From: Bacteroidia bacterium
Lineage (GTDB): Bacteria > Bacteroidota > Bacteroidia > NS11-12g > UBA9320
Direction of reading: 5' to 3'
Length of the DNA stretch: 64,000 bases
Assembly (NCBI GenBank): GCA_965216465.1
Contig: CBDCFW010000006.1
Coordinates: 416,723 to 480,722, forward strand
Positions 27,147 to 34,857 of this stretch are shown here, one piece after another (position 1 is the stretch's first letter; each line of letters opens with the position of its first letter). The translations under genes were made by a program, and so were the position numbers. A model generated the notes under the pieces. The model was not told where the DNA came from. It searched no databases and saw nothing but the letters and a program-made list of their open reading frames with translations.

Positions 27147-28877
27147 TTATCCAAGCTCAATTCCCTCCGACCATTCCAATCCACTCGCAAGTTTTGCAGA
27201 AGAAAACTCCAAATGAAGCACCCTCCTTTTTTTGGGGTTGCTAGACTTCGAACTTTTGTGAAGCAATAAAGGCTTCATGAGCATGATCCCTCCGGCTTCT
27301 ATTTCTATCGGGATAGGATCAGTATTCTCGGTGATAAGCTTCCGTTCTGCATCACTGTGTATCTTTTTGTGTGAACCAGGAATTACCTGCAAGCCGCCAC
27401 CATTCTTTGGACTAACATCATCCAAATAAATACGCAAGGTGAATGTATTTTGATTAATCTCAATCGGTGGATTCACACTTACGATTCCTTCCTTGCTTGT
27501 CCAACCGGTGTATCCCTTCACCAACTTCTTCTTCACGACATTTATAGCTCGATCTTGATGCCAGGTAACATACCAATTAGCCTTTTCGGTCTTGTTAAAA
27601 AAAATTGATTTACACAGCTGAGCATCCTTATCGATTGATTTAATAACCTTAAGAACTCCTTTGGTAATCACCAGATCCAGTAAGTTCGGATGTTTATTCA
27701 ATAAAGCCCTTTCAGAAAATTTATCAGGATTCGCTTGAAGTTGTAAGGCTTTATCCAGAGCCCTGCTTAACCTTTTTATTTCACGCAAGCTGAGAACATG
27801 GTTTAGGATGGCATATCCCTTATGTTCTAACTGTTTGCCTGCTGCCTTAATATTCTTATCGGTTAACTCGGTAGTATAGTTGCTTACACTTTGTTTTAGT
27901 CTATCCTCAATTCTTCGTTGCAAATCAGCAGGTTGCAAAACCTTCACCGATTCACCATACGAAAGAATCTCTTTCTCCAGCTCAAAATTGTGCTGCACCT
28001 TCAGTGCTATAACTACACCAAAATTATCTCTTTTGATTACGGTTTGCGAATGGTGCAGCGGCTTGGTAATAATGTAAGGTGCATGAGCATGATCAATAAA
28101 TATTTCTACATCCATAAGTGGAGCATTGGGAGAAACCGATACCCCAATCGCATTTCTAAAATAGGCTGCAGTATCAAAACTGTCATCCATTCTATAAGCA
28201 GATTTTCCAGCAGAAAGATTAACGATACGATCCAAGGCCAGGTTCAATATCCCTTCGGCCTTATGCTTACAACCAATCACAAACCATCTATTTCTAAACT
28301 CTTTGAGTAAGTACGGATGAAAATCAAATGAATTGGCCTTTCGAGCCTTAAATGATTTATAAGTGAGGTTGATTGTTCGTTTCTTGATAATGGCATTGTA
28401 GATCGTGTCGAGGTATTCCAATCCCTTTAAGTTCTCATTCTTCTCGAAATCAATCACCGGTTTAGTAGCTGTTTTCTGCGAATAAATGTGATCTTCCAAC
28501 TTCTGAACCATGCCATCCAATTCTCTAAAGTGAGAGAATCCCTGAAACTGCTTCATAAACTCAACTGCTTCGGTGAGCTTCCCTAAATCTTGTTCAGTAA
28601 GTGGAATATTGGTAATCGAATAATCTGCATCTTCATAGGTGTAGTACTTCTTATCCAATACAATTATCGGAGCAAAGTAACCCAGCTTATCGCTTCGCAT
28701 AATTTGGATATCGGCTTGTACCGTCCGTTTACTTACCCCTTTGTCGATCCCCTCGTATTCATATAGTGCATCTGAGCATGCTTCAATCAAGTCTTCCAAC
28801 GTCCATTTTCTGTATCTGTTCTGCAGACATTGATCAATGGTTTTGTAGCGTATGAGTGCATTCTTATTTACCGACAT
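27147..28877 (-). CDS. wHTH-WYL domain regulator fused to PhyH/EctD-like Fe(II)/2-oxoglutarate dioxygenase domain
   Basis: N-terminus NALIRYKTIDQCLQNRYRKWTLEDL (wHTH) and a WYL-like block FHPYLLKEFRNRWFVIG. C-terminus has WHQD...PGSHK...R, which is the PhyH-type HxD...H...R iron/2OG triad. Confidence 0.65.
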   Translation of the reverse strand: MSVNKNALIRYKTIDQCLQNRYRKWTLEDLIEACSDALYEYEGIDKGVSKRTVQADIQIMRSDKLGYFAPIIVLDKKYYTYEDADYSITNIPLTEQDLGKLTEAVEFMKQFQGFSHFRELDGMVQKLEDHIYSQKTATKPVIDFEKNENLKGLEYLDTIYNAIIKKRTINLTYKSFKARKANSFDFHPYLLKEFRNRWFVIGCKHKAEGILNLALDRIVNLSAGKSAYRMDDSFDTAAYFRNAIGVSVSPNAPLMDVEIFIDHAHAPYIITKPLHHSQTVIKRDNFGVVIALKVQHNFELEKEILSYGESVKVLQPADLQRRIEDRLKQSVSNYTTELTDKNIKAAGKQLEHKGYAILNHVLSLREIKRLSRALDKALQLQANPDKFSERALLNKHPNLLDLVITKGVLKVIKSIDKDAQLCKSIFFNKTEKANWYVTWHQDRAINVVKKKLVKGYTGWTSKEGIVSVNPPIEINQNTFTLRIYLDDVSPKNGGGLQVIPGSHKKIHSDAERKLITENTDPIPIEIEAGGIMLMKPLLLHKSSKSSNPKKRRVLHLEFSSAKLASGLEWSEGIELG

Positions 28878-28933
28878 AAATTTTTATTGCTGATTATCAG
28901 CGTTTTACAATAATTTTTTCAAAGATAAAACTT

Positions 28934-28954
28934 CTACGCAAAAACACTGCGTAG
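28934..28954. promoter_or_regulatory. palindromic operator CTACGCA-N7-TGCGTAG (copy 1), in the divergent region between the WYL gene and the tRNA array
   Basis: Direct reading. The same 7-7-7 palindrome plus downstream AATCTTTGTA...ACAAAACG recurs at 32621-32641. Confidence 0.7.
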
Positions 28955-29019
28955 TTCGATTAAAATCTTTGTATAACAAAACGGAGGAAACTCTAAAATT
29001 ACGTTCATTTATATAAACT

Positions 29020-29043
29020 CCCTCGAGCAATCGGGCTCGAGGG
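29020..29043. other. GC-rich hairpin CCCTCGAGC-AATCGG-GCTCGAGGG, 19 nt upstream of the first tRNA
   Basis: Perfect 9-bp stem read directly. Confidence 0.5.
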
Positions 29044-29061
29044 ATTGATAAACAATACTTT

Positions 29062-32681: not shown

Positions 32682-33842
32682 ATGATTAAAGTAATTTCAA
32701 CAGAAAAAAGACCAATTAAACTATGGTTAGACGATATTGAAGATGGAGCTTTAGATCAAGCTAGAAACTTGGCGAACCTTCCATTCACATTTAAGCATGT
32801 GCCTATCATGCCTGATAGCCATCAAGGATATGGGATGCCAATCGGATCGATTTTAGCGACACAAGAAGTAGTCGTACCCAACGCAGTTGGCGTGGATATT
32901 GGTTGCGGGATGTGTGCTTTAAGAACTGAGCTTAAGTCACTGTCTATCAAAGAATTAAAAGACACGTTGAAGCTAGCTAGAAAAGCCATCCCACTAGGAA
33001 TGAACTGGCACGAAGATGATCAAGACGAAGCTTGGATGCCTAAAGGATGGGAAGACTTAGAACAAGTGAGCAAAGAATATGCTAAAGCGAGAAAGCAAGT
33101 CGGAACATTAGGAGGGGGAAACCACTTCATCGAAATACAAAAAGGAGATGATGGTTTCATCTGGATTATGATTCATTCAGGATCAAGAAACTTGGGATAC
33201 AAGGTTGCAGGTTTCTACAACAAGAAAGCTCAAATGGTAAATGAACAATACTTCTCTCAAGTAACGAGAAAGCAAGAATTGGCGTTCCTTCCAATTGCAA
33301 CACCAGAAGCTCAAGACTATATCCGAGAAATGGAATACTGCGTCGAGTTTGCCTTGGCGAACAGAAAGTTGATGATGCATAGAATGGTTGAAGCTTTGAC
33401 AGCAGTTGTTGGCGATTTTGAAACCGATGAAATCATTAACAAGTCGCACAACTTCGCTGCATGGGAAAACCATTTCGGAGAAAATGTTCTAGTGCATAGA
33501 AAAGGTGCAACCCGAGCTCGAAAAGATGAATTGGGTATGATTCCAGGATCTCAAGGAACTTGTTCTTACATCGTAAGAGGCCTAGGTAACCCAGAGTCTT
33601 TTGAATCTTGCTCTCATGGAGCCGGAAGAAAAATGGGAAGAAAGCAAGCTCAACGTGCACTTGATTTAGAAGCTGAAAAAGCAGCTTTAGATGCTAAAGG
33701 CGTGGTTCACGCCATTCGAAATATTCAAGATCTAGACGAAGCACCAGGAGCTTATAAAGACATCGATATCGTAATGGAAAACCAAACCGATCTAGCTGAG
33801 ATCGTAGTTAAACTACAGCCATTGGCTGTATTAAAAGGGTAA
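32682..33842 (+). CDS. rtcB: RNA-splicing ligase RtcB (3'-phosphate/5'-OH RNA ligase)
   Basis: Conserved RtcB blocks: GVDIGCGM, GGGNHFIE, HNFAAWENHFGENVLVHRKGATRA, MIPGSQGTCSYIV, SCSHGAGR. Confidence 0.9.
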   Translation: MIKVISTEKRPIKLWLDDIEDGALDQARNLANLPFTFKHVPIMPDSHQGYGMPIGSILATQEVVVPNAVGVDIGCGMCALRTELKSLSIKELKDTLKLARKAIPLGMNWHEDDQDEAWMPKGWEDLEQVSKEYAKARKQVGTLGGGNHFIEIQKGDDGFIWIMIHSGSRNLGYKVAGFYNKKAQMVNEQYFSQVTRKQELAFLPIATPEAQDYIREMEYCVEFALANRKLMMHRMVEALTAVVGDFETDEIINKSHNFAAWENHFGENVLVHRKGATRARKDELGMIPGSQGTCSYIVRGLGNPESFESCSHGAGRKMGRKQAQRALDLEAEKAALDAKGVVHAIRNIQDLDEAPGAYKDIDIVMENQTDLAEIVVKLQPLAVLKG

Positions 33843-33895
33843 ACAACCCAGAGGCTTCGCTCTGGACTTTGTACAACCACTAAAGAAAGTTTAAA

Positions 33896-34657
33896 ATGAA
33901 AGAATTAATAATAGATAAACTGAAACAGCTTGAAAAAGACGAACAAATAAAAATACTTCTTGCTGTTGAAACGGGGTCGAGAGCTTGGGGATTCCCATCT
34001 CCAGACAGCGATTATGATATACGCTTGATCTATAAAAAAGAGCAAGATTGGTATATCCAATTATCTGAAGGCCAAGACCATGTCTCTTATATGTCAGATG
34101 ACGAAGAATTAGACCTTACTGGATGGGAACTTCGTAAAGCATTAAGGCTTATAACAAAGTCAAATGCGTCGTTGGCAGAACGGCTTCAAAGCCCCATAGT
34201 TTATATGGCAAAAGAAGGCTTCGCGAAAGAAATGCTAAATCTGGCTCAAGATTTCTTTTCACCCATAGCGGTGTTGCATCACTACCGGAGCATGGCCATA
34301 AAAAGAATGGAGTCCATCACCGAAAATTCTTCGTATCGATTGAAATCGCTTTTTTATGCCCTACGTGCTTCGTGTGCATGTAGATGGGTGCTTGAAAACG
34401 ACACCTATCCTCCTATAGTTTATCAAGAACTGTTAAAAGGGATATCAGTAAGCACAGATATAAAGCAACGCATAGCGGAACTTGTAGATCTAAAGAGCAT
34501 GAAAAACGAAGCTTATCTGCATGAAGGTGAGGCGATGCTCATCCAGTTTGTTAAAGACAATCTTGAAGAGGCTGAAATCGTAAATGAAATGCTAAAAATG
34601 AGCGATGGAGATATCTCAAAACTCGATGCATTTTTAAGAAAAGAGATAAATGACTAA
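33896..34657 (+). CDS. RlaP-type (PF10127-like) pol-beta-superfamily nucleotidyltransferase, RtcB-associated
   Basis: ETGSRAWGFPSPDSDYDIRLIY is the GS...DxD nucleotidyltransferase motif in the context typical of RtcB-linked NTases. It starts 54 nt after rtcB. Confidence 0.6.
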   Translation: MKELIIDKLKQLEKDEQIKILLAVETGSRAWGFPSPDSDYDIRLIYKKEQDWYIQLSEGQDHVSYMSDDEELDLTGWELRKALRLITKSNASLAERLQSPIVYMAKEGFAKEMLNLAQDFFSPIAVLHHYRSMAIKRMESITENSSYRLKSLFYALRASCACRWVLENDTYPPIVYQELLKGISVSTDIKQRIAELVDLKSMKNEAYLHEGEAMLIQFVKDNLEEAEIVNEMLKMSDGDISKLDAFLRKEIND

Positions 34658-34658
34658 A

Positions 34659-34685
34659 GGCCGCGGCAATAGCCGCGGCCTTTTT
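34659..34685 (+). terminator. rho-independent terminator ending the rtcB-NTase operon
   Basis: GGCCGCGGC-AATA-GCCGCGGCC followed by TTTTT. Confidence 0.8.
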
Positions 34686-34857
34686 AATTTCAATTTCCTG
34701 TCCCTGAATACCGACTTAGTCGATAGCACTATTTCACCCGCCCGTGCATAGGTCGCATTTCACAACGTACCCTCAGAAATTGCTAGGTATTTTGGAATAA
34801 AAAAAAACCCGAACTCAACGAAGAGATCGGGCCTTTAATAGCACATATTGCTTTATT

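Follow-up and report, generated by a model that had tools for sequence, protein, structure and literature searches.

A WYL-PhyH regulator and its palindromic site in a tRNA-array and RNA-repair island of a Bacteroidia bacterium

The closest described counterpart of the locus treated here, a tRNA-array and RNA-repair island with its own WYL-domain regulator in a Bacteroidia bacterium, comes from Anabaena sp. PCC 7120. In this strain, a 26-gene trn array, rtcB and the slipin gene alr0740 (alr0739-alr0740) are co-induced under translational stress and have in common a set of shared repeats and a single ribbon-helix-helix (RHH) repressor, TrcR (PMC8421152, PMC10272220). Long arrays of this type (L-arrays) were reported to be silent by default and to spread horizontally, and they were also noted in Bacteroidetes (PMC8421152). 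Systems composed of a Band-7/SPFH protein, the RNA ligase RtcB, the nucleotidyltransferase RlaP and a tRNA-like RNA were predicted by Burroughs & Aravind in 2016, as cited in later work (10.1101/312249, PMC7824862). WYL and CARF factors have been suggested to recognise RNAs that end in cyclic phosphates, and some of them to regulate RNA-repair pathways (PMC9503650); in Salmonella, the regulator RtcR senses tRNA fragments (PMC7790460). The WYL-domain factor DriD binds the motif ATACGAC-N7-GTCGTAT with an AT-rich spacer, which overlaps the -35 position at a fixed distance to the -10 box in promoters without a -35 element. One of these promoters is bidirectional and includes driD itself, and single-stranded DNA (ssDNA) bound at the WYL domain relieves auto-inhibition, thereby switching DriD on (PMC13004042, PMC10853764).

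Here, we analysed a 64 kb stretch of DNA, in the following called the window, from contig CBDCFW010000006.1 of the Bacteroidia assembly GCA_965216465.1. Approximately at positions 27147-34690 it holds an island in which a regulator combining a WYL domain with a PhyH-type dioxygenase lies next to a tRNA array, tRNA-mimic RNAs, an SPFH protein, RtcB and RlaP. We suggest, with a probability of roughly 0.6, that the island is a chromosomal RNA-damage-response regulon in which a DriD-like activator would control the array, the tRNA mimics, SPFH and rtcB-rlaP. A preliminary description of this DNA had already noticed the arrangement. The observation itself is confirmed, and the idea of a common regulon is strongly supported by the comparison of sequences from 80 related loci, 66 of which extend at least 6 kb upstream of the regulator and were used for counting gene co-occurrence.

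Parts of the island and their described counterparts

The WYL-PhyH regulator, the SPFH protein, RtcB, RlaP and the tRNA array were all recovered by Pfam, ARAGORN and Rfam exactly where the preliminary description had placed them. The parts of the island are as follows; L001 and L002 are two of the related loci.

27147..28877, minus strand: regulator of 576 aa with winged helix-turn-helix (wHTH), helical bundle, WYL and WCX domains and a C-terminal PhyH-type Fe(II)/2-oxoglutarate dioxygenase
28920..28927, minus strand: putative -7 box TATCTTTG of the regulator's own promoter, read from the sequence and kept in L001 and L002
28934..28954, unstranded: site 1, the 21-bp palindrome CTACGCAAAAACACTGCGTAG, between the divergent regulator and array promoters, 57 nt from the regulator ATG
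28964..28971, plus strand: putative -7 box AATCTTTG of the array transcript, 9 nt past site 1, read from the sequence
29019..29044, plus strand: leader hairpin between promoter and first tRNA, 10 bp; -20.1 kcal/mol, z = -6.4
29062..30712, plus strand: ~21 co-oriented tRNA genes within 1.65 kb (ARAGORN, Rfam, relaxed ARAGORN)
30713..31445, plus strand: conserved non-coding region of ~730 nt before the SPFH gene (nhmmer, 1e-85 to L001 and 1e-67 to L002)
30937-31001 and 31045-31159, plus strand: two tandem YrlA-like tRNA-mimic modules (Rfam YrlA, 35.0 and 26.7 bits)
31098-31168, plus strand: tRNA-like element (Rfam tRNA, above the gathering score)
31455..32546, plus strand: SPFH/Band-7 protein (Pfam Band_7, 5.7e-25); likely start ATG at 31455, the ORF tool gives TTG at 31446
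32559..32592, plus strand: intrinsic terminator downstream of SPFH, with a 12-bp stem and a UUUUUU tract; -16.8 kcal/mol, z = -4.0; end of the first unit
32621..32641, unstranded: site 2, CTACGCAGAAATACTGCGTAG, 41 nt before the rtcB ATG
32651..32658, plus strand: putative -7 box AATCTTTG of the rtcB-rlaP promoter, 9 nt past site 2, as at site 1
32682..33842, plus strand: RNA ligase RtcB, 386 aa (Pfam RtcB, 3.6e-112)
33896..34657, plus strand: RlaP nucleotidyltransferase of the RNA-ligase-associated Pol-beta family (Pfam RlaP, 6.2e-71)
34656..34690, plus strand: terminator downstream of rlaP, with a stem of 12 bp (9 G-C pairs) and a U-run; -25.1 kcal/mol, z = -5.5

Sequence and folding divide these parts into three transcription units, namely the regulator gene (leftward), array-to-SPFH and rtcB-rlaP. 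The gap between SPFH and rtcB measures 135 nt, and rlaP (PF10127) begins 53 nt after rtcB and is directly followed by its terminator. The leader ahead of the array is conserved; at the place of its hairpin, L001 has one of different sequence and L002 has none. The SPFH protein is 83% identical to its L001 homologue. RtcB falls below the NCBIfam equivalog cut-offs and is thus assigned to a divergent clade, and the RlaP protein of Pseudomonas was found to add 1-2 nucleotides to RNA 3' ends (PMC12776372).

The set of genes is conserved well beyond the window. Upstream of the regulator, rtcB was found in divergent orientation in 57 of the 66 loci, SPFH in 37 and RlaP in 17; 37 loci have one or more tRNA genes on the strand of the repair genes, and in 10 there is an array of at least seven. 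This is the co-occurrence of WYL-dioxygenase homologues with rtcB and tRNA arrays that the preliminary description had proposed to look for. Its view of the genes as one coherent module with a common regulatory site has held as well, and the palindrome is kept at the same promoters in relatives. Some islands have a different content: that of Olleya (L081) is richer, with Band_7, RtcB, RNase_T, two RlaP genes and DUF434, and in Catalinimonas (L083, 1403-9267) the WYL-PhyH regulator and its site stand beside TROVE (Ro60), RlaP, Barstar and a NAGPA-family protein instead of SPFH/RtcB, with a phage-type integrase at the edge. The variant with TROVE shows that the regulator is common to Ro-type and Band-7-type modules. 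Cultivable carriers include Olleya, Winogradskyella, Flavivirga, Flexithrix and Ohtaekwangia.

How does the island compare with the systems described so far? As in the TrcR regulon, a long accessory tRNA array, rtcB and a gene of the SPFH family would be governed by one factor and one DNA motif. The preliminary description had considered a regulon that joins tRNA supply to tRNA repair as undescribed; this claim is not supported, since the Anabaena TrcR regulon already joins a trn array, rtcB and a slipin gene, and since SPFH/RtcB/RlaP/tRNA-like systems were predicted in 2016 and WYL factors have been proposed for the control of RNA repair. The means are different, however. TrcR is a small RHH repressor that acts on direct 9-nt repeats over the -10 box and the transcription start, and its targets are scattered over a megaplasmid and the chromosome, whereas the island has a WYL-PhyH protein, an inverted 7-N7-7 repeat at -33 and a contiguous arrangement of all parts. 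The TrcR regulon and this island are analogous, not homologous.

With the Band-7/RtcB systems the island shares an SPFH gene adjoining RtcB, RlaP within the ligase operon and a tRNA-like RNA immediately upstream of the Band-7 gene. As cited in later work, the predicted systems contain a single tRNA-like RNA, whereas tandem YrlA-like modules and a ~21-gene array are found here. The island belongs to the Band-7/RtcB/RlaP class of RNA-repair systems, and its regulator is DriD-like with an additional dioxygenase. The domain architecture of wHTH, helical bundle, WYL and WCX is that of Caulobacter DriD and mycobacterial PafBC. Further traits in common with DriD are a 21-bp 7-N7-7 (pseudo-)palindrome with AT-rich spacer and TACG core, its -35-equivalent position, the fixed spacing to a predicted promoter box and the bidirectional promoter. 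In contrast to the regulator described here, DriD acts in the DNA-damage response, senses ssDNA and lacks a dioxygenase, and the identity between the two proteins is just ~14-16%. Finally, the rsr-yrlBA-rtcBA genes of Salmonella and E. coli resemble the island in that RtcB is co-transcribed with tRNA-mimic Y-like RNAs and, as proposed for the island, in a regulator that senses fragments of damaged tRNA; they differ by the CARF/AAA+ sigma-54 activator RtcR, by RtcA, by a Ro60 (TROVE) partner, in place of which the island has SPFH, and by the absence of a tRNA array. Pfam detected neither RtcR (CARF/AAA+ sigma-54) nor RtcA domains among the open reading frames (ORFs) of the island.

The regulator, its palindromic site and the promoters

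Pfam assigned a WYL (2.4e-13), a WCX (9.6e-10) and a PhyH domain (3.7e-16) to the regulator, and its AlphaFold2 (AF2) model reached a pLDDT of 81. In Foldseek searches, the N-terminal ~340 aa retrieved DriD (8tp8, E 5e-15) followed by PafBC, and comparison of the regulator with the DriD C-domain yielded a TM score of 0.81. The C-terminal ~240 aa matched AviO1, proline hydroxylase, EctD and PHYHD1, which are PhyH-type hydroxylases of small molecules or amino acids. In an alignment of 25 homologues, the triad H440-x-D442...H540 and R551 proved to be invariant, and the dioxygenase is therefore probably active. The same alignment revealed Y173, R195, R197 and W198 as invariant and K177 and R179 as nearly invariant residues of the WYL domain; these basic and aromatic positions appear compatible with binding of single-stranded nucleic acids.

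More than 100 full-length homologues with 57-79% identity keep all three domains, and relatives of the regulator are encoded in 484 species genomes. The regulators form a large, uniform and chromosomal family of Bacteroidota. Plasmid-borne and phage-borne forms were considered and rejected: the sole plasmid match covering at least 80% of the protein was only 33% identical and the others listed (up to 40%) concerned the N-terminal part only, and just two viral contigs matched, in the HTH/DNA-binding part alone. NCBIfam provided no model for the regulator, RlaP or a 108-aa protein encoded next to the island (see below), and PADLOC returned generic WYL matches only. Literature searches, in which the study of Burroughs & Aravind (2016) was represented by later citations, yielded no account of a WYL-PhyH fusion, of its site or of WYL-controlled tRNA arrays.

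On the IMG/VR contigs L085 and L086, we observed a stand-alone protein of ~137 aa that is 65-69% identical to residues 1-105/110 of the regulator. It consists of the wHTH and the start of the helical bundle and has no WYL, WCX or PhyH domain. In L085 the gene (10001-10414, plus strand) lies directly beside a tRNA array (10522-11371, minus strand), and the same holds for L086, the arrays comprising 9-10 genes; one half-degenerate site, CTACGCAAAAAGATTTCGTTT, is located ~400 nt upstream. Carried by a mobile element, the protein could hijack or block the regulon of the host without having a sensor of its own.

The motif CTACGCA-N7-TGCGTAG occurs exactly twice in the window, even when two mismatches are allowed; 0.05 occurrences are expected, and none of 100 shuffles gave two. 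The preliminary description had called the two copies identical. This applies to their arms; the spacers differ at 2 of 7 bases (AAAACAC vs GAAATAC), so that 19 of 21 positions agree overall. In its degenerate form RCGCA-N7-TGCGY, the motif was found 136 times in the 1.53 Mb of the 80 related loci, compared to 1.7 times in shuffled sequences, corresponding to a ~80-fold enrichment. At least one site is present in 73 of the 80 loci and at least two in 51. Regulator-proximal sites number 59, in 59 of the 80 loci, and mostly lie 55-60 nt before the regulator ATG. Counted by the first feature downstream, the sites precede rtcB (37), a tRNA gene (27), a YrlA-like RNA (11) or rlaP (4). The distance from site to rtcB in relatives is either ~42 nt, within the same RtcB clade, or ~300-360 nt in other clades; SPFH follows its site at ~900-1000 nt, with the non-coding RNAs in between.

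Not only the site but also its position within the promoter is conserved. The AATCTTTG boxes listed above, which we take to be instances of the Bacteroidota -7 motif TAnnTTTG, follow at a constant distance: in 90 of 116 related sites a TTTG occurs at the fixed offset of +33, and for both sites of the window it occurs at +34, giving the layout of site, 8 nt and an AAtaTTTG-like -7 box in relatives. The array box AATCTTTG is invariant across the window, L001 and L002. On the repair strand, TTTG is not found at any other position in as many as 15% of the sites, from which we conclude that these promoters lack a -33 TTTG. In 116 of 128 sites, the A-rich strand of the spacer is that of the repair genes, i.e. 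the orientation of the site is conserved as well. As a side observation, a 13-nt palindrome, GCTGATTATCAGC, is situated at 28889-28901 in the 5' leader of the regulator gene. It is kept in L001, less perfectly in L002 and not in distant loci, and may represent either a further protein site or a small hairpin.

tRNA genes, tRNA mimics and flanking genes

The array begins with Leu-UAG, Gln, Pro, His, Glu, Arg-UCU, an Arg-UCG-like gene without D-arm, Ala, Asn, Asp and Lys, and continues with an Ile-GAU-like gene without D-arm, a CAU gene, Gly, Met, Leu-UAA, Trp, Cys, Phe, Tyr and Thr. ARAGORN detected 17 co-oriented tRNAs between 29062 and 30712, with gaps of 1-9 nt between abutting genes, and no further ones in the rest of the 64 kb. 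Rfam added tRNA matches above its gathering score at 29534-29601, 29931-30007, 30017-30090 and 31098-31168, and relaxed ARAGORN contributed Tyr(GTA) at 30563-30635. The figure of 22 genes in the preliminary description thus becomes ~21 genes plus one tRNA-like element downstream, a count that is reproducible to within one or two. The CAU gene at 30017-30090 reads CGU in L001.

Fifteen members were found by both ARAGORN and Rfam, scoring 49-67 bits with the exception of Asp (29.6) and covering most amino acids; Val and Ser are not confidently represented. The notion of aberrant members was borne out in part. It holds for several members that score only 29-38 bits, for Ala and Trp, which were missed by Rfam, and for the two genes lacking a D-arm, 29534-29601 with the anticodon UCG and 29931-30007 with the anticodon GAU and a variable region of ~18 nt. 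It does not hold for 30937-31001 and 31045-31159, which are Y-RNA-like tRNA mimics rather than tRNAs. Both D-arm-less genes are conserved in L001 and are therefore probably under selection.

The array is long, co-oriented, tightly spaced and non-periodic, without repeated order, as described for L-type arrays, and the distribution of such arrays over the islands is likewise patchy, with varying orders and positions. The array of L001, with 17 genes, keeps the gene order of the window, and the regulators of the two loci are 76% identical. Arrays are found no more than 700 nt downstream of a site in the window and in seven related loci (L001, L002, L009, L018, L023, L024 and L033). A phage origin found no support among phage records, none of which covers more than 9% of the array, with similarity limited to single tRNAs.

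Between the array and the SPFH gene lie the tandem YrlA-like modules. Their Rfam scores stay below the YrlA (RF02553) gathering threshold of 69 bits in the window as well as in L028, L064 and L072 (34.5-46.6 bits). By iterative nhmmer searches, 51 of 81 sources were found to contain the module, which lies just upstream of SPFH, in every case on the strand of the repair genes and mostly as a tandem. In an alignment of 42 loci, the closing stem, T-arm, closed acceptor-like hairpin and D-arm of a permuted tRNA-like domain are all supported by covariation. Compensatory changes were seen in 15 of 18 pairs, 97.3% of the cells were paired compared to 71% in shuffles and 41-50% with the partner slid, and the covariation score was 0.767 vs 0.238. 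On the strength of this alignment, the modules are Y-RNA-like tRNA mimics, and they match the prediction of a cognate tRNA-like RNA for RtcB-adjacent Band-7 proteins (10.1101/312249). Pfam scans of the island and its nearest neighbours revealed no TROVE protein (Ro60/Rsr) next to the YrlA-like RNAs. Two other assignments were discarded: relaxed ARAGORN had proposed the last tRNA-like elements as Sec or Ser tRNAs, which gave way to the YrlA-like modules, and a 74-aa ORF at 31157-31381 was rejected as coding, since the alignment gaps towards L001 and L002 are not multiples of three.

Many islands of Flavobacteriaceae carry an odd, conserved pair of a Pro-UGG-like and a Tyr-GUA-like tRNA gene (26 loci each). 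The pair is nearly invariant in L015, L029, L030, L043-L047, L071, L081 and others and lies downstream of the site and upstream of SPFH or rtcB; the Pro-UGG-like gene begins with CTGGGAA and ends with CTCAGAC. The pair is probably the b7a-tRNA of the literature. The tRNA complement of the islands consequently ranges from one or two genes to ~20.

Convergent with rlaP, a 108-aa protein without Pfam, NCBIfam or PADLOC match is encoded at 34858..35184 on the minus strand. Homologues with 54-57% identity occur inside the islands of L043, L044, L047 and L081 (Olleya), and we tentatively count the protein as part of the system. The leader of its gene shows a weak rnk-leader-like Rfam match at 35198-35303 (32 bits vs a gathering score of 55) and a hairpin. 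The right flank at 35519-41325 looks accessory. It comprises a DnaJ-domain protein (35519-35932), a Zeta-toxin-like kinase (37284-37931, minus strand), a PIN_8 protein (38917-39957) and an insertion sequence (IS) with an rve transposase (40351-41325, minus strand); a 60-aa ORF ends 1 nt ahead of the start codon of the kinase. On the other side of the island, an alpha/beta-hydrolase ORF at 24644-25492 (plus strand) contains a short tandem peptide repeat, GVNAVNGVNGVNGVNG.

Proposed regulation and its meaning

What the sequences show directly are the parts and their order, the pair of terminators, the RNA structure, and the conservation of genes, site and spacing. How binding, sign of regulation, ligand, function of the array tRNAs and role of the dioxygenase might fit together, we infer as follows. 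A dimer of the regulator would bind CTRCGCA-N7-TGCGYAG at the place of the -33 element, 8-9 nt upstream of the -7 box. Site 1 would serve two back-to-back promoters, one for the regulator gene and one for a transcript running from the leader hairpin through the tRNAs, the Y-RNA-like mimics and SPFH to the terminator, and site 2 would drive rtcB-rlaP. Single-stranded nucleic-acid fragments, most plausibly pieces of cleaved tRNA or rRNA, would bind to the WYL domain and free the HTH; the freed regulator would then recruit RNA polymerase to promoters without a -33 element and thus activate them, as in DriD. The newly made, partly non-canonical tRNAs may replace or shield damaged ones, RtcB would reseal broken RNAs, RlaP would restore lost 3' nucleotides, and SPFH together with the tRNA-mimic RNA may act as cofactor or scaffold. 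Counter-defence against tRNase toxins, which the preliminary description had proposed, may be one use of such a module.

We favour activation by nucleic-acid fragments over repression, given the same 7-N7-7 geometry, the TACG core, the promoter logic and the DriD-like model. 'Operator', as the palindrome had been called in the preliminary description, may thus be the wrong word for a site whose geometry, like the fold of the regulator, resembles that of an activator. Several points weigh against the proposed activator regulon. WYL regulators of defence systems such as BrxR and CapW are repressors with the same divergent layout, and WYL repressors in defence islands typically show a divergent, autoregulated arrangement in which a palindrome overlies the promoter. 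The -7 box of the regulator has no fixed position relative to the site in distant loci. The substrates of PhyH-type enzymes are usually small molecules, which leaves the dioxygenase without an obvious place in the model. Only 10 of the 66 islands contain arrays of at least seven tRNAs, at varying positions, so that the array may be an add-on. The main rival to activation is the same regulon with the opposite sign, in which a WYL-PhyH repressor comparable to BrxR and CapW, and functionally to TrcR, would occlude the -33 position until released by a ligand. WYL factors have indeed been described as negative regulators (PMC9503650), the sole experimentally studied regulon of a tRNA array and rtcB, that of Anabaena, is controlled by a repressor, and L-arrays were reported to be silent by default. 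We nevertheless consider repression unlikely, though to be taken seriously, as the best structural matches are the activators DriD and PafBC, the site agrees with that of DriD in its 7-N7-7 geometry and TACG core, and a constant distance to the -7 box in combination with a missing -33 TTTG is a trait of activator-dependent promoters. That the palindrome is an RNA hairpin or terminator rather than a protein-binding site is hardly credible. A consensus scan does list 28954-28934 (minus strand) as terminator-like, but the half-site sequence is conserved over ~70 species, and its variation is not compensatory: variants such as CTACGCA...TGCGCAG would produce an A-C mismatch, which argues for recognition by a protein. 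Furthermore, the palindrome lies upstream of putative -7 boxes in the same geometry as the DriD site. As it is the sequence and not the pairing that is conserved, the candidate terminator was dropped.

The purpose of the tRNAs themselves leaves room for two further readings. Instead of being spares for translation, they might be baits or sensors, either as decoys for anticodon nucleases or as substrates whose fragments signal to the WYL domain. Island tRNAs are dominated by Pro-UGG, Tyr-GUA, Lys-UUU, Asn, Arg-ACG and His, some of which are classic targets of anticodon nucleases. Several members with missing or odd D-arms and low scores are conserved in spite of being non-canonical, and the neighbouring YrlA-like RNAs are tRNA mimics without anticodon arms. 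In addition, operonic tRNAs of Anabaena were seen to be cleaved, and a role as sponge was proposed for them (PMC8421152, PMC10272220). The 15 members found by both tools, most of them with high scores and together covering most amino acids, fit decoding, however, and we rate baits or sensors as somewhat less probable than repression. It is improbable, in our view, that the array is a mere hitch-hiker, i.e. a horizontally acquired L-type array placed beside resident tRNA-like genes and functionally unconnected to repair. The low number of islands with arrays, their differing positions (between regulator and SPFH, between SPFH and rtcB, or downstream of the regulator) and the horizontal spread of L-arrays (PMC8421152) would be explained in this way. 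Arrays recur in several lineages with different orders, yet each time they are part of the island or directly adjoin it, in the orientation of a promoter that bears the site; array order and aberrant members are conserved between the window and L001; and even minimal islands hold dedicated Pro- and Tyr-like tRNA genes.

We return to the DriD-like activator regulon and what it would mean. SPFH/RtcB/RlaP systems and accessory tRNA arrays are widespread, and outside Anabaena there is almost no experimental knowledge of how they work. Possibly new are the family of WYL-PhyH fusions, the site and promoter architecture that go with it, and the tRNA arrays as its cargo. Finding the same linkage in another phylum under an unrelated regulator argues that the linkage was selected and is not accidental. 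More tentatively, and with odds that we place below even, Bacteroidota may have their master sensors of RNA damage in the WYL-PhyH proteins, as DriD-type activators in which the WYL domain would read broken RNA, whose catalytically intact dioxygenase would provide a second input and whose regulon would always include genes for tRNAs or tRNA mimics. If this were true, the input of the dioxygenase would be the status of O2, Fe or 2-oxoglutarate or a chemical processing of the signal. Dedicated tRNAs would have grown in some lineages from a Pro/Tyr-like pair to arrays of ~20 genes, serving as inducible spares or baits, and mobile elements such as L085 and L086 may exploit the circuit via a stand-alone DNA-binding domain beside their own tRNA arrays. 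The locus is no conceptual surprise; it is a well-defined and widely conserved circuit that is open to experiment. It offers a candidate regulator, a 21-bp site and a promoter architecture that would tie tRNA supply, tRNA mimics and RNA ligation together in another phylum, and thereby makes it testable which signal triggers RNA repair, whether RNA, in addition to ssDNA, is read by WYL domains, what purpose array tRNAs serve and why a dioxygenase is fused to a transcription factor.

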